In this document: positions 10,947 through 33,963 of the stretch, piece after piece
Numbering within the stretch: the first letter of the stretch is position 1
How the letters are laid out: each line of letters begins with the position of its first letter
Assembly (NCBI GenBank): GCA_965232515.1
Contig: CBDDPY010000001.1
Location: 1-38,198 of the forward strand
Direction: 5' to 3'
Length of the DNA: 38,198 nt
Origin: Alphaproteobacteria bacterium
GTDB lineage: Bacteria > Pseudomonadota > Alphaproteobacteria > GCA-2731375
Position numbers and translations under genes: made by a program
Notes under the pieces: model-generated
What the model saw: the letters and a program-made list of their open reading frames with translations, nothing else
What the model was told of the DNA's origin: nothing
The model's database searches: none

Positions 10947-11498
10947 ATGACACCCGACAACCCTACCTATGATCCCATGACGCCGCAGGAGGTTCCGGCC
11001 GCGACCGAGTGCCGTATCTATCGGATGCTCAATGCGGCGCGGACGCTTCCCGAGCTTCAAGATCAGGTTCGATTGATTCTCCAGGGATTGCAGTTCAGCG
11101 ACTTCACGCACACCGTCCTTGGTCGCGAGGACGATCGCCTACCGCAGCCTAACCGCACGATGACCAGCTTCCCTTCGGCGTTGTGGGAGAGCTACGACGG
11201 CCACCTTTATCATCGCTGGGATGCGATCCTCGACTATGCGTGGCATAATCGACGGCCAATCTTTTACTCCGAGCTTCGCGCGGTCCTATTACGGTTTCCC
11301 CATGAATCCGAGTTAAAGCAACAGAACGATCGGATCGCCGCTTTATATCGCAGGCACGGCTATTACGAATTCTATTTGATTCCCCACGGCGCCGGCGGGC
11401 GCCGCTCGCTGTTCATGGTCGGCGATCGGCAGCTTGACCCCGACCGCATCCGCCGCCGTGCAGCCGCGGCTGACGGCGGCCAAGTCGAAGTCGAGTAG
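10947..11498 (+). CDS. LuxR-type autoinducer-binding-domain protein lacking the HTH
   Basis: LQFSDF..TSFP..LWESY-x8-DA..RRPIFY..RHGY pattern; no C-terminal LuxR HTH. Confidence 0.7.
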   Translation: MTPDNPTYDPMTPQEVPAATECRIYRMLNAARTLPELQDQVRLILQGLQFSDFTHTVLGREDDRLPQPNRTMTSFPSALWESYDGHLYHRWDAILDYAWHNRRPIFYSELRAVLLRFPHESELKQQNDRIAALYRRHGYYEFYLIPHGAGGRRSLFMVGDRQLDPDRIRRRAAAADGGQVEVE

Positions 11499-11533
11499 TT
11501 TCGTATGGTCTAAGGGGCTTCGCCTCTCGCACG

Positions 11534-11655
11534 GTCAACGCGATCACCGGCGGCCGTGGCCTGGGTGGTTCATCCCCGCGCGAGCGGGGAACGTTGTTAC
11601 CGTGACTACAGCTCTCCCACTGTAGACGGGTCATCCCCGTGCGAGCGGGGAACTT
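11534..11655 (-). CRISPR. Orphan type I-E-like CRISPR mini-array (2 repeats, 2 spacers)
   Basis: Repeats at 11627-11655 (minus: AAGTTCCCCGCTCGCACGGGGATGACCCG) and 11566-11594 (minus: ACGTTCCCCGCTCGCGCGGGGATGAACCA); period exactly 61; spacers 11595-11626 and 11534-11565 (32 nt each); no cas genes on the molecule. Confidence 0.88.
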
Positions 11656-11725
11656 TGTGTCAATATATGTACGCCTTTTGATTAAATCTTGTCGAGAATA
11701 ATCGCGGTAAAGCTAGGGTTTTTGG
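11656..11725 (-). promoter_or_regulatory. AT-rich CRISPR leader-like region
   Basis: AT-rich non-coding tract on the 5' side of the canonical repeat orientation; contains AATCAA (IHF-like half site). Confidence 0.6.
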
Positions 11726-11822
11726 GGCCATTGGTGGCCCGGTGATGGCGGCCGAGTTGGTCGAGAGGCAGCCTGCGGCTTCGGCGCGTCCGGCATTGGG
11801 GGCCTGGTGTGATCAGTGGCGG

Positions 11823-12022
11823 CGCGGATCCGCGTGCGCGGATGCTGCGCCCCTCTTTTTTTGATCCTGGCTAAGGGGCCTTGCCCCTCGCGCGGTCAAG
11901 GCTGCGGCCACCCCAGCCTCAGTCGCTCCGCTCCCTGCGGCAGGGTCCCCTGAACCTCGCCTGGACCTTGCTACCCCCAATCCTCGCCGGATGGGCAGGG
12001 GTTGATGCAGACGCATCACCCC
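11823..12022 (+). repeat. Long structured leading-region element upstream of the ParB-like gene (ssDNA promoter/ssi-like)
   Basis: GGATCC palindrome followed by a GCTAAGGGG...CTCAGTCGCT.CGCTCCCTGCG...GGGTCCCCTG...CTTGCTACCCCC block shared with 37606-37760 and, inverted, 19266-19385. Confidence 0.8.
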
Positions 12023-12058
12023 CTTCCCAGGGGGCTAGCAAGCCACAGGAGTTGCACC

Positions 12059-13786
12059 ATGCAATTGACCCATATCGACATCACCGACTTGAAGGTTTCG
12101 CCGCTCAACATGCGCTATGGCGAGGAACCGGACATCTCCGACATCCTACCGAGCGTGCGGAAACGGGGGGTGCTGTTGCCCCTGTTGGTGCGGCCGAACG
12201 GCAGCGGCTACGAGATCGTCGCCGGTGCGCGGCGTTTCGCCGCCGCCCAGGCTGTGGCGGAAGAAGCGGGCGAGATCGACCCCCTGCCCTGCGGCATCTT
12301 GGACGAGGACGACGACGCGGCGGCCTTGGAAGCGTCGATGTTGGAGAACCATGCTCGCCTCGATCCGCATGAAATGACGCAGTACGAACATTTCGCCCGG
12401 CTGGTGAAGGCGGGGCAGGACGTGGCCGATATCGCGGCCACCTTCAGCTTGACGGAGAGGCAGGTTGAACAGCGGCTCGCGCTCGGCAATCTGCTGCCGA
12501 AGATCAGGGAGGCGTACAGGGCGGATAAGGTCAGTGTGCCGACCATTCGGCATTTGACGATGGCGACCAAGACCCAGCAAAAAGCGTGGCTCAAACTGTT
12601 CGACGACCCTGCGACGCATGAGCCGTGCGGTGCGAACTTGAAGCGCTGGCTACTGGACGGTGACGACATTTCGACCGGGGGGGCGCTGTTCCCCTTGGAG
12701 GAATACACCGCCCGGAAAGGCCAGGACGGCAAGAAGGGCCGTGTCATCACCGATCTATTCGGAGACGGGGGCTACTTCGCTGACCGTGATCTGTTTTGGG
12801 AGTGCCAGAACGAAGCTATCGCCGCCGCGCGGGATGCGTTGTTGGCCAATGGCTGGGCCGAGGTCGAAATCCTCGAACGGGGCCAGAGGTTCTACCAGCA
12901 TGAGCATTCCGAAACCTCGAAAGCGAAGGGTGGCCGCGTCTACGTCACCGTCGCGCACAACGGCGCGGTCGACTTCCACAAGGGCTATCTGACCACCAAG
13001 GAAGCGGCCCGCAAGCGCCGCGCCGAGGCGGCGGCGGCACGCGGCGACGACGCTCCGGTGGAGAAGCCGGAGCGCGTGGAAATCTCTCAGCGAATGCAGG
13101 ACTACTTGGAAGGCTGCCGCCATACGGCTGTGCGGGCGGAACTGCTGCAACATCCCGGTCTGGCCCTGCGCCTGCTGGTCGCCCACGTCATCGAGGGGTC
13201 GCACCTATGGACAGTGAGCCCGGAACACCTGCTATGCGGGAACGACACGTTCGAGACCGAGCGGGCCGAGATCATCGCCCTTCTGGGTTTGCCGGAGCGC
13301 GGGTGCGTTGTTCACGAAGGCCGCGACGACAAGGAGGTGGTTCTGCTCACGGCCAAATTGCTTCAGATGCCGGACGACGAGGTGTTGCGCGTGCTGACAT
13401 TCGTGATGTCGGAAACCTTGGCCTGCGGCAGTGGGGTTGTCGAGGCGGTCGGCAACTACCTTGGGGTCGATATGGCCAACCATTGGGAGCCCGATGACGA
13501 GTTCCTTGACCTGATCAGGGACAAGCGGGTGCTCACGGCCATGATGCGGGAGATCGCCGGCAAGCGCACGGCGGACGCCCATGTGACCGCGACCGGCAAG
13601 GTCATGAAGAAGGTCATCCGCGATTGTCTGCGCGGCGAGAACGACCGCAAGAAGGTCGAGGGGTGGTTGCCGCGTTATCTGGCCTTCCCCTTCCGCGCCT
13701 ACACGAAGGCCGGGGGCGCGAAGGACGGCGGCATTCGGATCGCCGCCGCTTGGGATCGCGTCAAGCGGCTGCTGAAAGCGGCCTGA
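12059..13786 (+). CDS. Large ParB/Spo0J-family protein (plasmid leading-region type)
   Basis: N-terminal ParB domain GVLLPLLVR..IVAGARRF..SMLEN; HTH; AGGAG RBS. Confidence 0.92.
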   Translation: MQLTHIDITDLKVSPLNMRYGEEPDISDILPSVRKRGVLLPLLVRPNGSGYEIVAGARRFAAAQAVAEEAGEIDPLPCGILDEDDDAAALEASMLENHARLDPHEMTQYEHFARLVKAGQDVADIAATFSLTERQVEQRLALGNLLPKIREAYRADKVSVPTIRHLTMATKTQQKAWLKLFDDPATHEPCGANLKRWLLDGDDISTGGALFPLEEYTARKGQDGKKGRVITDLFGDGGYFADRDLFWECQNEAIAAARDALLANGWAEVEILERGQRFYQHEHSETSKAKGGRVYVTVAHNGAVDFHKGYLTTKEAARKRRAEAAAARGDDAPVEKPERVEISQRMQDYLEGCRHTAVRAELLQHPGLALRLLVAHVIEGSHLWTVSPEHLLCGNDTFETERAEIIALLGLPERGCVVHEGRDDKEVVLLTAKLLQMPDDEVLRVLTFVMSETLACGSGVVEAVGNYLGVDMANHWEPDDEFLDLIRDKRVLTAMMREIAGKRTADAHVTATGKVMKKVIRDCLRGENDRKKVEGWLPRYLAFPFRAYTKAGGAKDGGIRIAAAWDRVKRLLKAA

Positions 13787-13844
13787 TCTTCGTGGACGGA
13801 GGGGCCTGCTGGCCCCTCCCCTGCCCCGCAGCGGAAGGACCCCC

Positions 13845-14120
13845 ATGACCGTTCATTGCAACAAGGGCTGTGGCCGTACTTGGCCACGCCATCCCGTCCT
13901 TGAAGTGGACTGCCCGGCGTGCCCCGCCACGGCCGGATCGCGCTGCAAGCGCCCATCCGGTCATCAGGCGGCCGATTACCACCATGCCCGCGTGTTGTTG
14001 GCCTACGACGAGGGGCATTTCGGTTCCTGCCCTTGGGAATGCTGCCGGCCCGAGGGCCGCACCCTGCTCTCCGAGCGGGCCGGCGCGGACCTACCCCTGT
14101 TCGCGGCGCTAGACCGATGA
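13845..14120 (+). CDS. Small zinc-finger protein
   Basis: CNKGC, CPAC..C..H..H and CPWECC motifs; AAGGA RBS. Confidence 0.75.
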   Translation: MTVHCNKGCGRTWPRHPVLEVDCPACPATAGSRCKRPSGHQAADYHHARVLLAYDEGHFGSCPWECCRPEGRTLLSERAGADLPLFAALDR

Positions 14121-14500
14121 TGGTCTATCGGACACCGGGGACGCGGTTGACCTGGGCCAACCTGTCCGACTGGTGCGCCGTCGCCGGCGTGTTGAGCGAG
14201 CGGCGCGACGTGGACGGGGACAACCAGATGGCCCGAGCCGCCCATGTGGAAGCGTTGCCGCTGGCGCTCGTCGCCGGCTGTGACGACGTGGACGCGCTGG
14301 CAACGCTGCTGTGGTGGCTGATCGAGAGCCCGCCGAGCAAGCATATCGTGCGACCGCTTCGGGGGCACCGCGCCGATGCCCCGCATACGCCCTTGATCAT
14401 GGCCGCGAAGAACCGTCTCGCCCAGCTCGCGCGGGCGGCCGACACCGCGACCATGCCCATCGGCCACAACCGCCGTGCCGTCATCGATGCCGAGGATTGA
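14117..14500 (+). CDS. Hypothetical protein (127 aa)
   Basis: ATGA overlap with the upstream gene. Confidence 0.65.
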   Translation: MMVYRTPGTRLTWANLSDWCAVAGVLSERRDVDGDNQMARAAHVEALPLALVAGCDDVDALATLLWWLIESPPSKHIVRPLRGHRADAPHTPLIMAAKNRLAQLARAADTATMPIGHNRRAVIDAED

Positions 14501-14512
14501 GCGGCCGGATTT

Positions 14513-14528
14513 TGTAATGCACATTACA
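14513..14528. promoter_or_regulatory. 16-bp palindrome TGTAATGCACATTACA, copy 2
   Basis: Identical to 19216-19231; lies just upstream of the SprT-like gene. Confidence 0.75.
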
Positions 14529-14553
14529 ACAACTGTTCTAGAGAAGTGTCGTC

Positions 14554-15186
14554 ATGCCTAAGAAAACCACCCCTACCCAGGAAGCCTACGGCGAGTTGTC
14601 GAAAGCCTACGATCATTTCAATGCGGCCCTGTTCGGCGGTCGGCTGCCGCCTTGCCTTTTTACCTTTCAGCGCCGCAAGGGCACTTACGGTTTTTTTGCC
14701 GGGAGCCGCTGGACCGGGCGCGGCGAGCTTGTCGATGAGATCGCCATGAACCCTACGCATTTCAACACGCGGCCGCTGCTGGACGTGTTGTCGACGTTGG
14801 TCCACGAGCAGGTGCATTCAAAGCAGCACCATTTTGGTCGCCCGTCCCGATCCGGCTACCACAATCGGCAATGGGCTGAATGGATGCTGGACGTGGGCCT
14901 GGTGCCCTCCGACACCGGTGAGCCTGGTGGCAAGCAGACTGGTCAGCGGATGACCCACTACATCGAAACCGGCGGACGGTTCGAGATTGCCGCCCGCGCC
15001 CTACTCGATAATGGCTTTCGCATCACTTGGCGCGACCGCGCGGGAGAGGACGAGGCCAAGAAGAAGGGGAAGAGCGGCAGCCGGGTCAAATACATCTGCC
15101 CAGGCTGCGCGGCGGCAGTGTGGGGCAAGGCTGATCTGCGGCTCGCTTGCATGGAGTGTGAGGTCGAGTTGGAAGCCGACGATTGA
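14554..15186 (+). CDS. SprT-like zinc metalloprotease
   Basis: FNAALF..LP, HEQVH (HExxH), YHNRQW, C-terminal CPGC/CMEC zinc ribbon. Confidence 0.9.
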   Translation: MPKKTTPTQEAYGELSKAYDHFNAALFGGRLPPCLFTFQRRKGTYGFFAGSRWTGRGELVDEIAMNPTHFNTRPLLDVLSTLVHEQVHSKQHHFGRPSRSGYHNRQWAEWMLDVGLVPSDTGEPGGKQTGQRMTHYIETGGRFEIAARALLDNGFRITWRDRAGEDEAKKKGKSGSRVKYICPGCAAAVWGKADLRLACMECEVELEADD

Positions 15187-24386: not shown

Positions 24387-25398
24387 GGGCGCTAAAGGCG
24401 ACTTCGCTGATGATACGTCTGCCCGTCTCGCGCTTGAGCTGGATGACGATATCGACGACGTGGCGGGCATAGGCCATGATTTCGTCGCGGCCGAGGCCGA
24501 GATTGGCTTGCATCACCATGAGCGCCAGTTGCTCGAAAGCACCGCGCGGGCTATCGGAATGCAGGGTGGTGATGCTGCCCGGATGGCCGGTGTTGATGGC
24601 GCGCAGGTAGGTGTAGGCTTCGGCGCCGCGTAACTCGCCCTGTAGGATTCGATCCGGCCGCAGGCGCAAGGCCGCTTCGAGCAGGTCTTGGACGTTTACC
24701 CGAGCCCGGCCCTGGTCGCCCTTGGACACAAGGAGGCTCACAGTGTTGGGCTGCGCCACCTTGACCTCCGGCGTATCTTCGATCGTCACCAGTCGCTCAT
24801 GCCGGGGGATTGCCTTGCTGATCGCGTTCAAGAACGTCGTCTTCCCCGAGCTGGTGCCGCCCGAGACAATGATGTTTTTTCTGCCGGCGACGGCCTCGGC
24901 GATAAAGGTGGGAAAGTCGCCGGCGGCGAGCAGGCTATCGAGCCGCTTGTCGAGGGCACTGCGTTCGTTGCCTTGGGAGGCGATGGCGTGCTTGAAGGCG
25001 CCGGCGGCCACATAGTCATCCAGGCTCAGGTCGGTGACGGTCTGCTTGCGGATGGACAGCGCGCCGCCGTGCGGGGCGGCGGGGGGTAGGACGATCTGCA
25101 CCCGCTCGCCGCTCGGCAGCGCGGCCGACAGCAACGGCCTGTCGGCGCTGACCGCCTGATCTGTGTTGCCGGCGATCTGGCGGCCGAGCTGGTGGATATG
25201 ATCGGCGGTAATCTCCGGCAGGTCGTGGCAGGTCATGCCTTGCGCGCCCATCTCTTCGACCCATACTTGGCCTGGCCGGTTTACCGCCACTTCCGATATG
25301 TCGTCGCGGCTCAGCCAGGGATCGAAGGGCTTGAGATAGCGCCGCAGATAGACGCCCTGCTGGATACCGCCGTTGGAGCTTGCCGCCAGGTCGTTCAT
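24379..25398 (-). CDS. virB11: VirB11 ATPase
   Basis: SGGTSSGKTT, TIEDTPE, LRLRPDRI, NTGHPGSITTLH. Confidence 0.97.
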   Translation of the reverse strand: MNDLAASSNGGIQQGVYLRRYLKPFDPWLSRDDISEVAVNRPGQVWVEEMGAQGMTCHDLPEITADHIHQLGRQIAGNTDQAVSADRPLLSAALPSGERVQIVLPPAAPHGGALSIRKQTVTDLSLDDYVAAGAFKHAIASQGNERSALDKRLDSLLAAGDFPTFIAEAVAGRKNIIVSGGTSSGKTTFLNAISKAIPRHERLVTIEDTPEVKVAQPNTVSLLVSKGDQGRARVNVQDLLEAALRLRPDRILQGELRGAEAYTYLRAINTGHPGSITTLHSDSPRGAFEQLALMVMQANLGLGRDEIMAYARHVVDIVIQLKRETGRRIISEVAFSAHA

Positions 25399-26576
25399 CG
25401 CAATTGTCTCGCGATGACGTTGGTGAAATCCAGGTCCTTTGCCACAAAGACGTTGATGCGGGTGCCTTGGTCGATGTGGATAGTCGGCGGGATGTTGATG
25501 CTGTTTTCCAGGGCGATTTCGGCGGAGCGGGAGAAGTCGTCGCCGCCGCTGATCGCCACGTTGGCGCTGTCGTCGCCGATGGCCTCGACGCCGGCTTGGA
25601 TGGCGCCGTCGATCAGCGAGAGCAGGATGGAGTTGCCGAAGCGGCGCCAGAAGTGGGTATCCAGGAAGCCTTCGAGCCCGGCGCGGCCGAGTTCGTCGGC
25701 CCCGGGCGAGCCGACCAGCACCGACACACCGTCTGGCAGGAGCGCTCGGGTCCAGATGACGAACACTCGGGTTTGGCCCTGTACCAGGCCGGATTGGTAG
25801 CGGCCGATCAGGCGGGCGCCGCCGGGAATGAGCAGCCGCCGGCCGTCGAAGGAGTAGACGTCCTGGCTGACCACGGCCCGGACCATGCCGGGCAGGTCCG
25901 ATTGGATCGCGGTCTCCAGGGTGCCGCGTATCATGGTCCCCTGGGGAATGATCTTGTCCAGATTGTCGAGCCTGGTCGCTTCGACCATCGCGACGCTGTT
26001 GTTGTCGGCGCGGCGCAAGAAAGCTTCCTCCCGGGAGAGGTCTTGGTCGCCGGTCTCGCCGAAGAAGGCGGCCGGCTCTTGGCCGTTGGCCGCCGCGGCG
26101 ACGCGTGGTTCAGCCTGTGGGCCCGAACCGCCGCGATCGACGATCAGGATTTCCGAGCGCAGCCGTTCCAGGCGGCGGCGTTCGGCTTCCTCGGCCCGCC
26201 GCATGGCGATTTCCTGAAGCCTCAGTTGCTGTTGACGCTCATAGGGGTCGATTTCGGCCCGGGGGGGCGGTGTCGGCTCGGGGGCCGGCTGCACCGGCCT
26301 TAAAGCCACGGTTTGCGGCGGCGCGACCGTAGGAGGGCGGCTGGCCGGCGAAAACTCTTCTTGATCCGGGTCGGTGAGGCGGACATCGGCGTTCTCGGTG
26401 GGCCAGTTGATCCAGGCCACGACGCCGGCGATGGCAAGGCCGAAAAACACCATTGCCAGCCGCTGGTTGCGGTTGGTGCGGGCAACCGGCGTGATGCCGC
26501 GATCGCCGGCGGCCAGCTCGGGTGTCTCGGGTGGCGTGCCGCCCGGCGGTGCTCCATTGTCGTGCCGATCGGTCAT
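25395..26576 (-). CDS. virB10: VirB10/TrbI
   Basis: N-terminal TM, Pro-rich linker, GTLETAIQSDLPG, IPPTIHIDQG. Confidence 0.95.
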   Translation of the reverse strand: MTDRHDNGAPPGGTPPETPELAAGDRGITPVARTNRNQRLAMVFFGLAIAGVVAWINWPTENADVRLTDPDQEEFSPASRPPTVAPPQTVALRPVQPAPEPTPPPRAEIDPYERQQQLRLQEIAMRRAEEAERRRLERLRSEILIVDRGGSGPQAEPRVAAAANGQEPAAFFGETGDQDLSREEAFLRRADNNSVAMVEATRLDNLDKIIPQGTMIRGTLETAIQSDLPGMVRAVVSQDVYSFDGRRLLIPGGARLIGRYQSGLVQGQTRVFVIWTRALLPDGVSVLVGSPGADELGRAGLEGFLDTHFWRRFGNSILLSLIDGAIQAGVEAIGDDSANVAISGGDDFSRSAEIALENSINIPPTIHIDQGTRINVFVAKDLDFTNVIARQLR

Positions 26577-27451
26577 GACCGCCGGCCTTCTGTCGGCGGT
26601 ATCGGCGTTTGCGACGTGGCCGCCGGTGCGTCGCTGTCTTCGGGCCGTGGGCTGTTGAGGTCGAGGTCGGGCGTGCGCGAGTAGGTCTCATTGTAGATGC
26701 AGGTGACGACGTTGCCGTCGCGCAGGGTGAATTGACGGCCGACGCGCTGCACCACGACATAGTTGCCGTCGACATGATGGTTGACCAGGGCCTCGGTCTG
26801 GTCGGCATTGACCAGGAAGATGGCCGGTGTGTCGGTCTTGGCGGCAAACTCAAAGTAGGTGAACTGGCCGTCGTCGAAGATTCGCTTCGGGACCAACTCG
26901 CGATCGCCGGCGAAGGTGTAATCGAAGTTCCAGGCGGCCGGCGTTACGCCCTCCCGGTCCGCACCGACAAGGGAGTCGCGGTCGCGTTGCGCCTTTTCCT
27001 CGCGATCGAGCAGCAGGCGCAATTCTTCCTCGGGATAGCTAAATTCCAGGCGATAGGCGATGTCGGAGTCCGCCGGCCCGCGGGCCTGGGACGCGCGCAG
27101 CTCGAAAGAATAGATGCGCGCGTCGGTGACGACGTTGAGGTTGGTCTGCGCGTTTTCTTCGATTGGCTTCAGGAAAAGTTTGTTGCCGGCGTTGTTCGGC
27201 ACGATCTGCCACGCGATGCTGTCGCCGATGGAGATGTTCTGAATCGCCTCATCCGGGGCGAAGCGGATCAGCGTCTGATAGCCATAGTGTCCCTCAACAA
27301 TATAGACGGTGTGCTCGGAGTAGACGAACGTCTTGATGCGCGGGTCCATCTGACCGGGCCGTGCGGTTGTATCGGCGAGGGCCGGGACGGCGAGTGCGAC
27401 GCCGGCCAGCACCAGGATCAGTCTCTTCATGGTTGCCTCTTTCATCTTCAT
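26573..27451 (-). CDS. virB9: VirB9
   Basis: Signal peptide, DPRI, NKLFLKP, TNLNVVT, FDDGQFTYFEF. Confidence 0.95.
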   Translation of the reverse strand: MKMKEATMKRLILVLAGVALAVPALADTTARPGQMDPRIKTFVYSEHTVYIVEGHYGYQTLIRFAPDEAIQNISIGDSIAWQIVPNNAGNKLFLKPIEENAQTNLNVVTDARIYSFELRASQARGPADSDIAYRLEFSYPEEELRLLLDREEKAQRDRDSLVGADREGVTPAAWNFDYTFAGDRELVPKRIFDDGQFTYFEFAAKTDTPAIFLVNADQTEALVNHHVDGNYVVVQRVGRQFTLRDGNVVTCIYNETYSRTPDLDLNSPRPEDSDAPAATSQTPIPPTEGRRS

Positions 27452-28107
27452 CGGACCATTTCTTGATCGCGTCGATAGCTGATCACTTCAAAGCCCAGTG
27501 GGTTGCGGAGCCGTTCGGCCAGGCTGGCGGGCCGGGCGACGTAGCGGAATTGGAGGATTGCGACCCAGTGATCGATAGTCTCGCTCTGGCGGTTCCGCGT
27601 CGTGGTCTGGAACCGCACGGAGGCCGTCCGATCGTTCAGAAAGGAGATGGCCTTGATCTGCACGGTGATCGTGCCGTGATAGCCGTATAGGTTGACCGGA
27701 TTGGTGGCACTGGCCCGGTCGTAGAGTTGTTGGTGCAACTCACGCGCCGTGCCCGTGCTTGTGCGCATGACGTGATCGAAATTTTCTTGGATGTCGGCCG
27801 GGTCGTAGGTCTCGCGGGCGGTCAGATGACGCGCGATATTTGCCTTGGTGATGGCCTCATCTTCGGTCAGTTCGCCGGGTTGGAGCCCTTTCGTGACTTC
27901 CATATAGCCGGTGGTCCGATCGACGGTGACGACATAGGGCGCGAACTCTTTCAGCGGCAGGACGAGCACGACGGCAAGCATGGCCAGGATGGCGATGCCG
28001 GCGGAAACGGCCGCGACGATCCAGGCCAGGGTCCGCGAGCGTCGGAGCCGCTGATATATCTCGCGGTCCCAGGTCTCCGCGTCGGCGTAATAGCCCTCTC
28101 TAGCCAC
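27448..28107 (-). CDS. virB8: VirB8
   Basis: TM, LPLKEFAPYVVTVDRTTG, RETY, NPLGFEVISYR. Confidence 0.95.
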   Translation of the reverse strand: MAREGYYADAETWDREIYQRLRRSRTLAWIVAAVSAGIAILAMLAVVLVLPLKEFAPYVVTVDRTTGYMEVTKGLQPGELTEDEAITKANIARHLTARETYDPADIQENFDHVMRTSTGTARELHQQLYDRASATNPVNLYGYHGTITVQIKAISFLNDRTASVRFQTTTRNRQSETIDHWVAILQFRYVARPASLAERLRNPLGFEVISYRRDQEMVR

Positions 28108-29152
28108 GGCGGGTCCTTCCCATCATCTGCTGGACTTCCGGCTTGTTGCCGGTCGGGACGCCGGCGCGGGTGCTGGACAGCGCCCGGCCGGTCTGGCTGG
28201 CGTCGTCGGCGGTCGGGGTCGGGGATCGGTTGCCTCTTAGCCGGCGGCCGAGATTGACGGCCGCGCGCCCGCCGGCATAGACGCCGCTACGGGCGCCGCC
28301 GGCGAGCTTGGTGAGGTTTCCAAACGCGCCCCCGGTCGAGAGCTGGAAGGCGCCGGCGATGCCGGCCGCCCAGCCGATCACCTGAGTCGCCAGCAAGAAG
28401 CTGACGACCATCACCAGGGAGTAGGCGGCCATTTGGGTATAATCGAGGGCTTGGTTTTGAGCTGCGATCAGCAAGGGTGCTGACACGCCGTTCATGATGT
28501 TGATGATAAGCGCCAGCAAGCCGTAGATGAAAATGGGGATCAGCGCGAAACTCAACGTTTGGCGCAACCAGCCTTCAAAGAGCCCGCGCGTCCCGGCGAA
28601 GATGTAGAGCAGGATGAAGATCGGGCCGACGGCCAAGAGGACCGCCGTCGCAAGCTTGGCAAGGACGATGACGAAGAGTGTGAAGCCGACGACGAGCAGG
28701 GTCAGGATGACGAGGGCGAGCCCGAGGAAGAAGGGCGTCGGATTGGTCAGTCCCGCATCCTCGCGCATGAGTCGAAAAGTCTCCCATGCGCGATTGTTGA
28801 TTTGGTCGAGGGCCTGGTTGATGTTGGTTTCACTTGGCAGACTTCCCGTAGCTTGCAGCAGGGTCGTGGCGAGGGCTTCGGGGACATCGGTCGCGAGGAC
28901 GAAAACGGTCTCGATCAACAGCGGTACGTGAGTCACGAAGACATAGACAAACGTGATTGTGAACACCCGGGTCATCCCTTCAGCCCAGGTCAATTGCGTC
29001 CGTCCCATCCAGAGCAGGTAGCCCCAAATCGCGATGTAGAGCACGAAGACCGACCGGATGATGTTGGCCCCTTCGGTCGTGAGCGTATTCCATGCCCCGA
29101 TCACGAAGACATCCACGTTGGCATTTACGGCTTCGAGGACGGACTCGAACAT
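28100..29152 (-). CDS. virB6: VirB6
   Basis: Polytopic membrane protein with LLAVGPIFI..TRGLFEGWL; start MFESVL. Confidence 0.92.
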   Translation of the reverse strand: MFESVLEAVNANVDVFVIGAWNTLTTEGANIIRSVFVLYIAIWGYLLWMGRTQLTWAEGMTRVFTITFVYVFVTHVPLLIETVFVLATDVPEALATTLLQATGSLPSETNINQALDQINNRAWETFRLMREDAGLTNPTPFFLGLALVILTLLVVGFTLFVIVLAKLATAVLLAVGPIFILLYIFAGTRGLFEGWLRQTLSFALIPIFIYGLLALIINIMNGVSAPLLIAAQNQALDYTQMAAYSLVMVVSFLLATQVIGWAAGIAGAFQLSTGGAFGNLTKLAGGARSGVYAGGRAAVNLGRRLRGNRSPTPTADDASQTGRALSSTRAGVPTGNKPEVQQMMGRTRRG

Positions 29153-29177
29153 CGGGGCTTTCCCTTTCGACCGGCGG

Positions 29178-29633
29178 TCAGTTCCCTTGGAGTGGGCTGG
29201 ATCGGTGGGCCTGCATCCAGGGATCGCAGGCTGCCTCGTCCCCTTGTCCGATAGGTTTGAGCATTTCAGCTTCACGGCATTCCCAGATCGGCCGCATCCG
29301 CTGATCCATGAACTCCCACAGCCACGGCTCTTTGACGTGCGCCAGGGTCACGTCATAGCCTTGCCCGCGCAGGCCCTGGACGATCAGATCGGGCATGTCG
29401 CGTAGGCAGAAGTCGGGATCGCCCCTGTTTCCGGGATCGTCAGGGTTGGTGTAATAGCGGTGACACCAACGGTTCCAATCGGGCTTGGTCTGCCGCAGAT
29501 CGTCGTAGAGCTGATCGCGGGGCACGGCCGCGAGCGGATTGGGCGTGGCGTCGGTGGCCTGTGAGCCGGTGTCGTCGCAGCCAAGCACCAGGCCGGCGGC
29601 GAGCAGGACGCCGGCGAGCCGGGGCAGCATCAT
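29178..29633 (-). CDS. Lipoprotein, candidate entry-exclusion factor
   Basis: Lipobox LVLGC; lies between virB5/virB7 and virB6, the usual eex position. Confidence 0.65.
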   Translation of the reverse strand: MMLPRLAGVLLAAGLVLGCDDTGSQATDATPNPLAAVPRDQLYDDLRQTKPDWNRWCHRYYTNPDDPGNRGDPDFCLRDMPDLIVQGLRGQGYDVTLAHVKEPWLWEFMDQRMRPIWECREAEMLKPIGQGDEAACDPWMQAHRSSPLQGN

Positions 29634-29800
29634 CGGGTCTCCACCAATGGCGCCGCGGCGAAGGCGACGTTCACCGGCAGCCGATCGCCGCAGCCCACGC
29701 GATCGAGCGAGGCGGTCGTGGGGCAGGGGGCTTTCAGTTCCTTGTGCGAGGCGCAGCCCCCCAGGGCGGCCAGCACGACGGCCAAGCATAGTGATCTCAT
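29630..29800 (-). CDS. virB7: Small VirB7-like lipoprotein (56 aa; not in the ORF track)
   Basis: MRSLCLAVVLAALGGCASHKELKAPC..CGDRLPVN; GAGG RBS; ATGA overlap downstream. Confidence 0.75.
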   Translation of the reverse strand: MRSLCLAVVLAALGGCASHKELKAPCPTTASLDRVGCGDRLPVNVAFAAAPLVETR

Positions 29801-29810
29801 GGCGGGTTCC

Positions 29811-30566
29811 TCAGTTGGTGGGAATCTCTCCCAGGCGCGTGGGCTGGAAGCGGTTCATGCGGGCATCGGCGCTCGTCGCGACTTGCTGCTGCGTCGCGAT
29901 GGTGCCGTTCAGTTGCAGGTTGACGGCTTGGAGGCGCAGCATCTCGTTCGCCGTCAGGCCGTTCTCGGCGGCGATCCGCGCGGTCAGATCGATGCTGGCC
30001 TTCAGATCGGCCGCGTGGTCGATTTCCGACAGGAGCGTTTCGTAGACCTGGACGCGACGGGCGGTCTGGCCGTAGGCAGCCTCGGAGGTCGCGAGGGTGG
30101 CATAGCTGGTGTCGGTCGTGCGCTGGTGCGCTTGGGCGGTGGGAATGTCCGGGCGGGCGGGCGCATAATCCTCGGCGGTGGCCACGTCGTAGCGTTCGGC
30201 CAGCTCTTGGAATATCCGCTGTACGTCGGAGGCACTGGCCGGGATGCCGGCGGCGTCCAGGATGTTCATGGTTTCGAGCCATCCCGGCGGCACGTAGCGG
30301 CGCAGATCGCGCTCGAGGTCGCCGTTGACCAGTCCACCCAGGCCGCGGCCGCCGGTGATCGCGTTGACCTGCGCGATGGCCTGGTCCAGCTCCTGAAGCT
30401 GGGTTTGATAGGCTTCCTGAAGCTGCCGGACCTGTTCGATGGCCTGCTGGGCCGTGATGGTGGTCTGGACCACGTTGGTCGCGTCGATGACCGGGATGCC
30501 TTGTGCGAAGGCGGCCGATGTGCCGGTGCCGGCGGCGATGACGGCCGCGGCGATAACTCGTCTCAT
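29811..30566 (-). CDS. virB5: VirB5 minor pilin
   Basis: Signal peptide then QGIPVID; AITGGRG; DLKASIDLTARI. Confidence 0.93.
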   Translation of the reverse strand: MRRVIAAAVIAAGTGTSAAFAQGIPVIDATNVVQTTITAQQAIEQVRQLQEAYQTQLQELDQAIAQVNAITGGRGLGGLVNGDLERDLRRYVPPGWLETMNILDAAGIPASASDVQRIFQELAERYDVATAEDYAPARPDIPTAQAHQRTTDTSYATLATSEAAYGQTARRVQVYETLLSEIDHAADLKASIDLTARIAAENGLTANEMLRLQAVNLQLNGTIATQQQVATSADARMNRFQPTRLGEIPTN

Positions 30567-32968
30567 AGGTGGACCCTCCTTTGGTGAAACAGGGGCAGCC
30601 AGTCGTCGGGACGGTCCCCGACATCGGCTCGGATTTCGTCGAGCAGGGCGACGGTTTCCGTGCGGCCCGAGAGGACCGCCAGAATGTCGTCGAGGCCCGA
30701 CAGGTCGAGGCGCACGACGACCGAGTGCGCGCCGTGCTTGATCAGGAAACAGCGGCTGTTATCCGGCAGGGTGCGGACCAGCTCGTATTCGGTCTCAGTC
30801 AGGCCGAAGCCGCGGCAGTAGTCCTCGCGGCCGGCCTTCAGGTTCGGCATGAAAATCTGCGTGGGCGATTGCTCGATAATCGCCGGGCCGACCTTGGTGG
30901 CCAGGGCGTCGCTGGCGGATTGCGAGCCGAAGCCCAGGACACCGTTTTGCTTGCGGATGGTTTTTTCCCAATCCTTGATCCGGGCCGCGAACCAGGGGTC
31001 GTCGAGGGCCTTCCAGCCCTCGTCGATGAAGATGATCGTCTTGGTGCCGTCCAGCAGGCTTTCGACGCGGTGGAACATGTACATGAGCGCCGGCGTGCGG
31101 CTCAGGGGATCGTCGAGGATGTAGGTCAGGTCATAGCCGGTCGTGTCGGCCTCGAAACTCAGCTCGTCGCGTTCGTGATCGAACAGCCAGGCGCGGTCGC
31201 CCTTGCCGACCCACTGGCCCAATCGCGCGGACAGGCTGTCGGGTCCCGGCCGTTCGTGGCCGGTGAACATCTCTTGCAGGTAGGACAGGCGGCGGTGTTC
31301 GGGCGCCTCGCTGTAGTTCGCGTCTACGGCGTCGCGAATTACAGCGCGATCGGTCGGGGTGAGCGGTTGTCGGTCGGCGGGCTGGACGAGCTGGGCCAGC
31401 CATTCGCGCAGGAAGGCCCGGTTGATCGGCGTGTCGTCGAGTTGAAGCGGGTTGAAGCCCGACGACACGCCCGGGCGGATCACGCTGTAGTGGCCGCCGA
31501 CCGCCCGGATGAAGATTTCGGCGCCCCGGTCCTTGTCGAAGAAGACGGAGCGCGGCCGGAACCGCTGCGCCTGGGCCATCAGGAAGGTCAGCACGACGGT
31601 CTTGCCGGTGCCGGACGGTCCGATCACCGTGAAGTTGCCGAGATCGCCGTGGTGGAAGTTGAAGGCATAAGGCGTGCCGCTGGTCGTTTCCAGAAGGGCG
31701 GCGGCGTCACCCCAATGATTGCCGTGCAGCTTTCCGGTGGGGAAGTTGTGCATGGCCGCGAAGCCGCTGAAGTTCGCCGACGAAATGGGGGCGTTGCGGG
31801 CGATATAGGCCATGTTGCCGGGGAGCTGCGCCCAGTAGGCCGCTTCCATGTTGGCGTCCTCGCGCACCGCGAGGATGCCGAGGGTGGTCAGGTCGGCCAT
31901 CACGTCGCTGATGGCCCGGTCCAGGGCGCGCGGGCTCGGAGCCTTGACGAAGGCGGTCAGGTGGTGCTCGCCCCAGACGATGCGGCCCGATGCCGTGTCG
32001 TCTTGGGCGTCGTCGAGCTGGTCCATAAGGGAGGTCGCCTTTTCGTCGGCCACGTCCATTTGTCGGCGCGTGCGAATCAGACTCTCCATCGCCCTGCCGC
32101 GGTCGATCAGGGCGAAGCTTTGCGTGATGACCATTTCATGTGGCAGCCGTAGCAGGCTGTCGGTCATGCCTGGGCCGGTCTCCGGCGGGTATTCTTTGAT
32201 GGCGATCAGCGCGCCGAGGTCGCTGTCGCCATTGACCGGCCCGCGCAGCTCGACCGTCTCCTGGCCGAAGAAGGGCCGCTTGGTCGGCAGGAGACGGTCG
32301 AGCGCCATGCGCGGCAGGCGGATCGGCCGCATTTCGTGATTGACCAGGTAGGCCAGCATCTCCAGGGCCTCCGAAAAGAGCCCGTCCGGCGTCTCGTAGA
32401 CGCCGATCCGCCGTGCCCCGTAGCGGTGCAGGCTGGAGACGATGGAGTCGACCGCATCGTTGAGCGCCTTCAGGTTCTCTTTACGGCTTTGTTCGGCCGC
32501 GCGTCGGTCGGTCTGCGCCGACAGGACGCGCAAGGCTTCCTGGATCAGGCCGATGTTGCCGCGCAGGGGCCGGCGGATGACCGTCAGATACTGGTCGTTG
32601 ACGAAGAGCCGACGCTGACCCAGCTTCGCGCGCCAGGCGTCGTCCAGGTCCCGGCAGAAGCCCGAGAACTGGCCGTCCGGATAGATCGACATGGACATCT
32701 CGCGCCGGATGATGTGGTGGTAGAGCGCGAAGCGGCTGTTGCCGAGCCCCCGGAGCAGGGTGTTGCGCTCGTGCGCGAGTTGGTTGATCTGGTCCTGATC
32801 GGCGGTTTCCCAAGCAAAACCGTCGATCTTGAGGATCTGGAGCAGGTAGCCGTCCTTCGTCGCGATCGTGTGATCATCGACGTGGTGGGTATACGGAATG
32901 AACGCGCTGACACCGACTTCACGGGTCGCGACTTTACCGTTGCGTGTGCGTCGGACAGCGCTGTTCAT
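30563..32968 (-). CDS. virB4: VirB4 ATPase
   Basis: GPSGTGKT, FFDKDRG, IDEGWK, TIRKQN; start MNSAVR. Confidence 0.97.
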   Translation of the reverse strand: MNSAVRRTRNGKVATREVGVSAFIPYTHHVDDHTIATKDGYLLQILKIDGFAWETADQDQINQLAHERNTLLRGLGNSRFALYHHIIRREMSMSIYPDGQFSGFCRDLDDAWRAKLGQRRLFVNDQYLTVIRRPLRGNIGLIQEALRVLSAQTDRRAAEQSRKENLKALNDAVDSIVSSLHRYGARRIGVYETPDGLFSEALEMLAYLVNHEMRPIRLPRMALDRLLPTKRPFFGQETVELRGPVNGDSDLGALIAIKEYPPETGPGMTDSLLRLPHEMVITQSFALIDRGRAMESLIRTRRQMDVADEKATSLMDQLDDAQDDTASGRIVWGEHHLTAFVKAPSPRALDRAISDVMADLTTLGILAVREDANMEAAYWAQLPGNMAYIARNAPISSANFSGFAAMHNFPTGKLHGNHWGDAAALLETTSGTPYAFNFHHGDLGNFTVIGPSGTGKTVVLTFLMAQAQRFRPRSVFFDKDRGAEIFIRAVGGHYSVIRPGVSSGFNPLQLDDTPINRAFLREWLAQLVQPADRQPLTPTDRAVIRDAVDANYSEAPEHRRLSYLQEMFTGHERPGPDSLSARLGQWVGKGDRAWLFDHERDELSFEADTTGYDLTYILDDPLSRTPALMYMFHRVESLLDGTKTIIFIDEGWKALDDPWFAARIKDWEKTIRKQNGVLGFGSQSASDALATKVGPAIIEQSPTQIFMPNLKAGREDYCRGFGLTETEYELVRTLPDNSRCFLIKHGAHSVVVRLDLSGLDDILAVLSGRTETVALLDEIRADVGDRPDDWLPLFHQRRVHL

Positions 32969-32982
32969 TCGGCCCTTCCCGG

Positions 32983-33270
32983 CTAGGGTTGATAGCTGTT
33001 CGCTCTCCAGAATTGGCGGTTGCGGCAGAGTGTCGTTTTGGTCAGCTTGATCCGCCAAAGATCGAACAGGCGGGGGTCCTTCAAACACATCAGGTAGCCG
33101 ACGATGTGGACCGGCAGGCCGACCAGGAAGGCCAGCAGATTGTTGCTGGCCAGGAACAGGATCGTCGTGATGGTGACGTTCGCGACGAAAAAGGTATAGG
33201 TCACGCCCTTGATCATCGGCGGTCGGGTCATTGCGAGAAACAACGGGGCGATCACGGGCCGGTCGCTCAT
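32983..33270 (-). CDS. virB3: VirB3
   Basis: PLFLAMTRPPMIKGV, DPRLF, NSYQP. Confidence 0.93.
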   Translation of the reverse strand: MSDRPVIAPLFLAMTRPPMIKGVTYTFFVANVTITTILFLASNNLLAFLVGLPVHIVGYLMCLKDPRLFDLWRIKLTKTTLCRNRQFWRANSYQP

Positions 33271-33274
33271 GGCT

Positions 33275-33571
33275 TTACCCGGCCGCCGCGGTGAAGGTGT
33301 CAACGATCGCGGCGCCGCCGAAGATCAGGATGATCCCGCCGATGATCGACCCGACCCAGATCCACCGTAGCCGCCCTGTGAGCGCGGCAAAGCCGAGGGC
33401 GGCGACGGCGATCACGGCGACCGTTCGGGCGAAGGTGCCCGTCAGGAAGTTCAACACCATATCGGCGACGTCTTCGACGGGCTGAAGCGTCTGGGCGAGC
33501 GCCGGCTCCGCCGCCAGCAGCAGCGCAAGACCGAGGGCCGCAATCTGGAGCGCCTTGGAGAGGCGGCCTAC
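33275..33571 (-). CDS. virB2: VirB2 pilin (start codon uncertain)
   Basis: EPALAQ processing site and two hydrophobic helices ending FGGAAIV; no canonical start near the signal peptide. Confidence 0.85.
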   Translation of the reverse strand, partial: VGRLSKALQIAALGLALLLAAEPALAQTLQPVEDVADMVLNFLTGTFARTVAVIAVAALGFAALTGRLRWIWVGSIIGGIILIFGGAAIVDTFTAAAG

Positions 33572-33831
33572 GCCCTGTCGCCGTTGGCGAGGCGGACGAC
33601 AAACTCCGCGGTGGTCGGAGAGACTTCGCGAATGAACGTTGCGACGGCCGATAGCTGTTTCCAAGTCCGCAGGTGGCCGCGCTCGGTCTCGATCTCCACG
33701 GCCTGTTCTGGAAATTCCGCGATGATCGCCCAGCCGTTCTGGGTCTGAAAAACCTTGAAGTCCCCCGTGCCCGCCGTTGATGACACCAGACGCAATTGGC
33801 CTTCCGTGATGCGTTTTCGTTTTTTTGTCAT
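33568..33831 (-). CDS. KorA-like (IncW/IncN-type) transfer-operon repressor
   Basis: ITEGQLR..ETERGHLRTWKQL pattern; first gene of the virB operon, directly before virB2. Confidence 0.65.
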   Translation of the reverse strand: MTKKRKRITEGQLRLVSSTAGTGDFKVFQTQNGWAIIAEFPEQAVEIETERGHLRTWKQLSAVATFIREVSPTTAEFVVRLANGDRA

Positions 33832-33963
33832 GTGAACTCTTCATTGCCCCCATCGAGTCGGCTCCTTTTCTCAAATTTCGGGGTGGTGCGGCAACTCCGC
33901 ATGCACGGATGCCCGAGCACGATAGGTTGTAATTGAAATATTGTCGATACAGATTCGTAGATA

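Follow-up and report, generated by a model that had tools for sequence, protein, structure and literature searches.

Short CRISPR arrays that lack cas genes are common on plasmids and form a described class, with 207 orphan arrays among 13,265 plasmids (Pinilla-Redondo et al. 2022, PMC9071438), and in the section of that survey cited here they are proposed either as remnants or as arrays for use in trans. The way in which type I-E spacers are inserted is also documented. According to the cited part of Swarts 2012, the last base of the repeat comes from the prespacer, and repeats that end in CCA have been reported (PMC3338789). Prespacers can enter backwards as well: Qiu et al. 2016 describe a 33-bp fragment that inserts inversely and leaves the spacer with the PAM-derived G at its distal end (PMC4762764), and the relevant part of Shmakov et al. 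2014 reports that non-AAG protospacers enter in both orientations nearly equally commonly, with median ratios of 2.8-4 (PMC4027179).

Here we analyse a plasmid locus that is a further example of these known kinds, the orphan plasmid array and the inverted spacer. The stretch of DNA analysed (the window) is the whole of contig C1, 38,198 bp long with 64.9% G+C, from a genome of four contigs and 7.39 Mb in all (96% complete, with a chromosome of 7.33 Mb). In our preferred reading, to which we assign a probability of about 60%, the locus holds an orphan mini-array of type I-E that is in decay on a 38-kb RepC/VirB plasmid, and its second spacer derives from the plasmid itself or a sibling and is dead for interference.

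Results

By gene content (RepC, a relaxase, VirD4 and a VirB set) the window is a conjugative plasmid (Table 1). One open reading frame runs off the 3′ end of the contig; were the molecule circular, the frame would be completed by the first 28 nt of the 5′ end, which is suggestive only. ParB_N and SprT-like genes adjoin the array locus, and copies of a conserved element lie on both sides of it; an RNA with a function would be no surprise in this position, which counts against an inert fossil. A search of Rfam at the gathering score found no family anywhere in the window; a riboswitch-like hit at 11385-11460 was sub-threshold and inside an open reading frame, and was rejected.

Table 1. Features of the plasmid locus, the conjugation genes and the spacer target (positions in the window)
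Feature	Position	Strand	Remarks
AT-rich leader-like flank	11656-11720	minus	upstream (minus-strand sense) of first repeat
Repeat B, leader-proximal, degenerate type I-E	11627-11655	minus	25/29 canonical bases
Spacer 1	11595-11626	minus	32 nt; internal 6-bp inverted repeat
Repeat A, near-canonical type I-E	11566-11594	minus	27/29 canonical bases; ends CCA not CCG
Spacer 2, virB5-derived, leader-distal	11534-11565	minus	without closing repeat; with 11566 a 33-bp unit
Truncated dispersed-element copy	11510-11541	plus	first ~31 nt, hairpin; diverges after ~31 nt
Full dispersed-element copy	11871-12030	plus	just upstream of ParB_N-domain gene (ATG 12061)
Full dispersed-element copy	37609	plus	
Full dispersed-element copy	19384	minus	
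RepC	15940-17220		
NikA-like	19452-20009		
MobA/VirD2-type relaxase	20006-21202		
VirD4	22536-24470		
VirB11, B10, B9, B8, B6, B5, B4, B3, B2	25398 to 33874	minus	
virB6	28100-29275		
virB5	29811-30566	minus	251 aa; between virB4 and virB6; PF07996
Protospacer duplex in virB5 (plus strand)	30336-30368		CCA at 30334-30336 on crRNA-sense side; AGG at 30370-30368 on minus strand
virB4	30563-33088		
VirB2 pilin gene	33275-33874		

Two type I-E repeats are present in the window, and the same two are the only ones in the whole 7.39-Mb genome. As the canonical repeat we took the 29-mer common to 67 of the 73 copies in the type I-E array of Haematobacter massiliensis pOT1-4, an array located downstream of cas3-casA-casB-cas7e-cas5e-cas6e-cas1e-cas2e. 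The close resemblance to this cas-linked repeat bears out an earlier note on this DNA, made from the sequence alone, which had recognized a type I-E repeat-spacer unit. Repeat A departs from the canonical sequence at its first and last bases, and repeat B at four positions, one of which opens the top pair of the stem and another of which falls in the 5′-handle part. The repeats start 61 nt apart (a 29-nt repeat plus a 32-nt spacer), the regular type I-E unit, and the match of the second spacer to virB5 ends 32-33 nt from repeat A. Spacer 1 is flanked by repeats on both sides and spacer 2 on one side only. We read the array on the minus strand because it is collinear with the pOT1-4 array downstream of cas2e; read in this direction, its spacer RNA would be complementary to the minus-strand virB5 mRNA, and the collinearity thereby supports the antisense crRNA that had been predicted.

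The leader-like flank contains no promoter site in a simple sigma-70 scan, and its resemblance to the leader of the G017 array, the one leader compared, is not significant (score 52, with shuffles at 44 ± 6). Spacer 1 has no match elsewhere in its own genome and chance-level matches only in PLSDB and phages; a pattern that left each sixth base of this spacer free had 0 hits in metagenome_contigs and in viral_contigs.

Spacer 2 matches a conjugation gene of the plasmid that carries it. The match noticed in the first reading holds in every respect: the reverse complement of 11533-11568 agrees with 30334-30369 at 35 of 36 positions, the 32-nt spacer agrees with 30337-30368 at 31 of 32, and the mismatch at 30345 is synonymous, being the third base of an Arg codon CGC (30347-30345) for which the spacer implies CGT. 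The 33-bp inserted unit (11534-11566) is identical to 30336-30368 save for this one mismatch. Within the window the 36-nt sequence occurs at two places, itself and virB5, and none of 100 dinucleotide shuffles gave two matches; across the whole genome the 32-nt spacer has no match besides itself and 30337-30368, after which the best is 16 exact bases. The target had been called the virB5 pilin gene. It is a true virB5, with a PF07996 score of 98.4 bits (cut-off 24.7, E = 9.3e-28) and with virB4, virB6, virB8, virB9, virB10, virB11 and virD4 adjacent; the word pilin does not apply, VirB5 being a minor pilus protein and VirB2 the pilin. An overlapping open reading frame at 29797-30624 was considered for virB5 and rejected as the wrong frame. 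The protospacer encodes V-N-A-I-T-G-G-R-G-L-G, and its A-x-T-G-x-R core is invariant or nearly so among 10 aligned VirB5 sequences.

VirB5 homologues in metagenome assemblies are 96, 74, 76 and 64% identical to that of the plasmid, all with PF07996. In PLSDB the VirB5 identity does not exceed 33% (31 records), and the virB5 gene has no match there at the DNA level. In genome_contigs the closest VirB4 loci are 50-56% identical (best 80 of 535 relatives). Only one of these 80 best VirB4 relatives has a VirB5 at E <= 1e-3, and the best match to spacer 2 among them has 8 mismatches in 32. Apparent spacer matches in two relatives' genomes (L007 and L009) proved to be neither virB5 nor spacers and were dropped. 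The search for further targets of spacer 2 that the earlier note had called for was fruitless, with chance-level matches in PLSDB (best E 0.2) and 0 hits in genome_contigs, metagenome_contigs and viral_contigs for a protospacer pattern that preserves the amino acids. A query for natural protospacers with the whole pOT1-4 array returned only other arrays, through their repeats.

The end of repeat A and the flank of the protospacer (30334-30336) both read CCA, as had been noticed. The A at 11566 is accounted for because the last repeat base derives from the prespacer, which supports the proposed origin of this base in the protospacer (PMC3338789). On the virB5 side the CCA is the complement of the wobble T of a Gly codon GGT (30338-30336) and the first two bases of a Gly codon GGA (30335-30333). 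Since two Gly codons encode it, the CCN flank is fixed, and any Gly-Gly allele has CCN; Gly-Gly is kept in four of the five closest VirB5 sequences, that of the plasmid included. The PAM is therefore no discriminator between self and kin, as the plasmid and its Gly-Gly relatives have CCN alike. In the type I-E system of V. cholerae a C at -2 abolishes PAM function (PMC12767519), in S. avermitilis the PAM is AAG (PMC4762764), and in E. coli 36 of the 64 trinucleotides are inert, with CCG in the 'stable' group, a statement that concerns CCG itself (PMC6568314). By these rules, which come from E. coli, V. cholerae and S. avermitilis and may not be those of this type I-E lineage, spacer 2 would be unable to license interference because its crRNA-sense flank is CCA and not an A-rich PAM.

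The other strand offers a different boundary. There an AGG (30370-30368) precedes the duplex, and its G plus 32 bp spans 30368-30336, precisely the 33 bp that the array contains. In E. coli AGG licenses interference as a PAM and, in naive adaptation, ranks with the commonest donors other than AAG, as far as the cited part of that study goes (PMC6568314). The four functional E. coli motifs make up 5.5% of the trinucleotides of the plasmid, and AGG 1.6%. We infer that spacer 2 was inserted inversely; a flipped insertion next to an AGG, raised earlier as a side remark, thus becomes the best-supported origin, given the exact 33-bp duplex that the AGG bounds. Under inverse insertion the two further matching bases of the repeat (CC) and one at 11533 would have to agree by chance, at about 1 in 64.

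No third repeat follows spacer 2. A degenerate one was sought and rejected, since 11505-11533 in register has 22 mismatches to the canonical repeat in 29 positions, and among 13 nearby registers the count falls no lower than 18, which 18.9% of all sequence windows along the plasmid also reach. In its place stands a truncated copy of a dispersed element of ~150 nt, the hairpin core of which occurs four times on the plasmid; this copy alone diverges after ~31 nt. The distal 6-8 nt of spacer 2 fall within it, the two having GGTCAA in common, and GGTCAA is also present in the neighbouring full copy at 11871. Because the junction lies in the shared GGTCAA, these sequences suggest that the array was once longer and lost its distal portion by microhomology deletion. 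Both full copies on the plus strand (11871 and 37609) sit just upstream of an ATG, the copy at 11871-12030 folds well as single-stranded DNA (z = -2.86), and a related intergenic sequence is found in eight Agrobacterium, Rhizobium, Neorhizobium and Peteryoungia plasmids.

The host genome returned no type I-E machinery. A Cas1 profile (PF01867) had 0 hits in the whole genome, and so had a Cas6e profile (PF08798), a weak test in which the control was detected in one of 14 control genomes; tblastn of the eight pOT1-4 type I-E Cas proteins against the genome gave a best E of 0.074. As the host is without detected type I-E Cas proteins, the locus is probably inert as a CRISPR array in its present cell. 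A similar repeat occurs in one of 32 other genomes of the host's family, and similar arrays are carried by many plasmids of Acetobacteraceae, Paracoccaceae and other groups, from which it follows that there are possible alternative hosts with cognate type I-E systems.

Relatives of the plasmid occur in public runs. A contig of X3 spans 11481-12279 with 0 differences, and X4, which comes from another study and bears another organism label, has a 1006-nt contig that corresponds to 11534-12541 with 8 differences and 2 gaps (99.2% identity). Among the other X4 pieces listed the divergence is 3-15%, and of 33 X4 pieces only three are at least 99% alike. The unusually conserved segment takes in spacer 2, the two repeats and the leader, together with the dispersed element and the beginning of the ParB_N gene; its preservation may reflect a recombination block or selection on the segment. 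That it is kept at 99.2% identity in the diverged X4 counts against pure decay. The X4 contig has its left end exactly at 11534, and the bin left of this point is also covered in X4; as a hint only, such an end would fit an assembly graph that branches where at least 31 nt are identical to virB5 in that strain. A contig of X5 departs from the window left of 11826.

Discussion

On our preferred reading, Cas1-Cas2 would have taken spacer 2 from the virB5 of this plasmid lineage, that is, from the plasmid itself or from a near-identical sibling. The 33-bp prespacer would have been measured from the AGG on the virB5 coding strand and inserted inversely. With CCA on the crRNA-sense side, spacer 2 would never have licensed interference, which would explain why a plasmid-borne copy was kept. 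The array would then have lost its distal part, and repeat B would have accumulated changes. Decay is favoured because the leader-proximal repeat B is the more damaged of the two, though that repeat is normally the best kept. On the opposite side, the spacer-protospacer pair differs at 1 of 36 positions and the repeats at 2 and 4 from the canonical sequence, a contrast that is statistically uncompelling. A variant origin is that a piece of array was captured from a former host or from a plasmid that had met this one. Naive type I-E adaptation reportedly draws heavily on plasmid DNA, a finding ascribed to Levy 2015 and Yosef 2012. A plasmid-borne acceptor would thus be expected to collect plasmid spacers, of which only interference-dead ones would persist in a Cas-proficient host.

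Several other accounts were weighed against a decaying, interference-dead array. An assembly chimera, against which the earlier note had warned, or a chance similarity can for practical purposes be dismissed, as no shuffle out of 100 reproduced the match and the junctions are bridged by independent contigs from X3 and X4, so that the locus is not an artefact of one record. The earlier note proposed a functional array, by which the plasmid might borrow host Cascade to exclude its relatives while sparing itself. In its general form, a mini-array would be used in trans by the Cascade of a cognate type I-E host, with spacer 1 directed at some other element and spacer 2 at sibling conjugative plasmids, much like mini-arrays borne by viruses or plasmid CRISPR systems aimed at conjugation genes. 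Precedents exist: in the reports as cited, mini-arrays carried by mobile elements are directed mostly at close relatives and use host Cas proteins (PMC11656645), and plasmid spacers over-target conjugative plasmids, with orphan arrays possibly using host Cas (PMC9071438). The repeats hardly differ from those in cas-linked arrays, and the protospacer lies in the most conserved motif of VirB5. Use in trans is nonetheless unlikely, and it is the most weakened of the functional rivals, through the fixed CCN and the lack of a 3′ repeat: the plasmid and its Gly-Gly relatives share a CCN that provides no PAM distinction and has a C at -2, non-functional in V. cholerae (PMC12767519), and spacer 2 has no downstream repeat to supply a 3′ hairpin. 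No cas gene was found in the present host, the repeats match no CRISPR system of its genome, spacer 1 has no match as a target in the sets searched, and the spacer 2 pattern has no second target in the three contig sets. The proposed exclusion of relatives is thus unsupported for lack of a detected type I-E cas gene, a PAM difference and a 3′ repeat, and so is the companion proposal that a CRISPR RNA damps the plasmid's own T4SS, as no type I-E cas gene was found and spacer 2 is without the downstream repeat from which Cas6e would take its hairpin.

The conservation of the segment in X4 speaks for use in trans, and equally for two further accounts in which an RNA acts without a working array. 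In one, the repeat RNAs would soak up the Cas6e, Cas5 and Cas7 of a recipient as an anti-CRISPR or decoy, the virB5-like part being a leftover spacer. RNAs that mimic repeats inhibit types I-C, I-E, I-F and V-A, and 90 solitary repeat units borne by plasmids are given in the cited part of that work (PMC10651486); here repeat A is near-canonical, and ParB_N and SprT-like genes and elements that can fold as single strands adjoin the locus. We nevertheless hold a decoy to be improbable, given that Racrs are solitary repeats whereas the repeats here alternate with 32-nt spacers in a regular 61-nt unit, that none of 10 neighbouring open reading frames compared with PHROGs is annotated as anti-CRISPR, and that the sigma-70 scan gave no promoter. 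In the other, a Cas-independent antisense RNA would pair over 35 of 36 nt with the virB5 mRNA and lower VirB5 synthesis, as a fertility brake of the FinP kind. A minus-strand transcript of 11534-11568 would indeed be complementary to that mRNA, the match is still nearly perfect, and a 191-nt transcript model folds (z = -2.56). There is, however, no promoter in the scanned flank and no terminator after the segment on the minus strand, and CRISPR adaptation explains the exact 33-bp length and the position next to a repeat with no function needed, which leaves the antisense account very improbable. The remnant could also have been exapted, a leader-driven transcript with the virB5-complementary 36 nt at its end, and the dispersed-element hairpin after them, acting on the plasmid's own virB5. 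Such an RNA might serve as a Cas-free antisense or, in type I-E hosts, as a PAM-less Cascade guide, and might tune the supply of the pilus-tip protein and mating; this role would explain a segment kept at 99.2% in a relative that has diverged by 3-15% elsewhere, and we regard it as highly doubtful.

If the fossil reading is true, the locus would be a clean natural record of two points familiar chiefly from the laboratory: that a leader-repeat on a plasmid can be the acceptor in type I-E adaptation, and that among plasmid-derived spacers those inserted inversely can survive on the plasmid, being blind to their target. It also carries a warning for surveys of 'self-targeting' spacers, in which a perfect-looking match may be interference-dead by orientation. 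Plasmid fertility control would be touched only if the rare functional reading held.

Comparison with known systems

Like the orphan plasmid arrays of the 2022 survey, this one is short, has no cas genes beside it and sits on a conjugative plasmid, with a spacer that points at a conjugation gene; unlike those arrays as far as the cited sections describe them, its sole identifiable target is its carrier's own gene, and it has two repeats with the last spacer unclosed (PMC9071438). A close counterpart is pACRY04, a 37.4-kb RepC MPF_T plasmid of Acidiphilium cryptum that also carries an orphan type I-E mini-array; that array, in contrast, has four repeats, the terminal one degenerate as is normal, and lacks a self match (four segments of 32 nt, each with at least 10 mismatches). 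The virus-borne mini-arrays of inter-element competition, the subject of Medvedeva et al. 2019 (PMC6858448), are likewise arrays of one or two spacers that a mobile element carries and that include a spacer directed at its own kin, but in this case the host is without a detected cognate CRISPR-Cas, the flank is no functional PAM in self or kin and the 3′ repeat is missing, points on which the cited account of those arrays differs (PMC11656645). As with the Racrs of Camara-Wilpert et al. 2023, a mobile element that lacks cas genes bears mimics of CRISPR repeats, type I-E included; compared with the Racrs in the part of that report cited here, its repeats are periodic, as repeat-spacer-repeat, and no acr neighbour was found (PMC10651486).

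The self match, the degenerate repeats and the absence of a detected cas gene recall the self-targeting spacers of Stern et al. 2010, which go with degraded repeats or a loss of cas, as relayed in PMC3338789, where the self is the chromosome and not, as here, the plasmid that carries the array. The likeness to flipped type I-E insertions lies in the 33-bp unit with its PAM-derived G at the leader-distal end (PMC4027179, PMC4762764), and in the reverse complement of the PAM downstream of the target, which is CCT here and CTT in S. avermitilis (PMC4762764). The locus differs from the flipped cases in those cited parts in that its motif is AGG, not AAG, that its acquisition is read from sequence, and that it is natural and plasmid-borne, the donor being the carrier replicon.

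Sequences flanking the CRISPR array

The array is bordered at one end by a 183-aa ORF that terminates 36 nt before spacer 2, the leader-distal, virB5-matching spacer. Its sole domain is the LuxR-type autoinducer-binding domain, with the DNA-binding domain absent; the ORF may regulate transfer in the manner of a TraR antiactivator. Also adjoining the array (window 12002-15186) are genes for a ParB_N-domain protein of 594 aa and an SprT-like protein of 210 aa, an arrangement reminiscent of the leading or anti-defence regions of plasmids. Further along the plasmid, the Zeta-toxin-like ORF is probably an addiction module.

Three full copies of a dispersed element of ~150 nt, which opens with a GC hairpin, occur in the window, along with one truncated copy. 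An ATG lies shortly 3′ of each plus-strand full copy (2/2), and the single-stranded DNA of the element has a good predicted fold (z = -2.86). An Rfam search of the window at the gathering score assigned the element to no family. Related sequence is found in unannotated intergenic DNA of eight plasmids from Agrobacterium, Rhizobium, Neorhizobium, and Peteryoungia. The element could serve as a single-strand promoter in a leading region or as a 5′-UTR element.

Features of the window (+, forward strand; -, reverse strand)
Feature	Position	Strand	Remark
LuxR-type autoinducer-binding domain ORF, 183 aa	10947-11498	+	PF03472
Dispersed element, truncated copy	11510-11541		
Dispersed element, full copy	11871-12030	+	
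Dispersed element, full copy	19384-19230	-	
Zeta-toxin/AAA_33-like kinase ORF	21742-22527	+	Between relaxase and virD4
Dispersed element, full copy	37609-37770	+	

Spacer 1 and other observations

Spacer 1 (11595-11626) contains a 6-bp inverted repeat, CTACAG ... CTGTAG, with arms 8 nt apart, and no target for it was found in its own genome, PLSDB, phages, metagenome_contigs, or viral_contigs. In X4, a sequencing run from another study that holds contigs of a diverged plasmid relative, window 11534-12541 is matched at 99.2% identity by a contig that starts at the exact distal end of spacer 2 (11534); other X4 pieces show 85–97% identity among the matches listed. Within the four-contig genome itself, the small contigs C3 (5,516 bp) and C4 (10,862 bp) have G+C contents of 46% and 42%, compared with 65% in the remaining genome; these contigs may represent contamination or small replicons of foreign origin.

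In Acidiphilium cryptum, the 37.4-kb conjugative RepC plasmid pACRY04 (NC_009470.1) carries an unannotated orphan type I-E mini-array of four repeats and three spacers at 25676-25893, and a second plasmid of the same strain (NC_009468.1) carries a similar, larger array.
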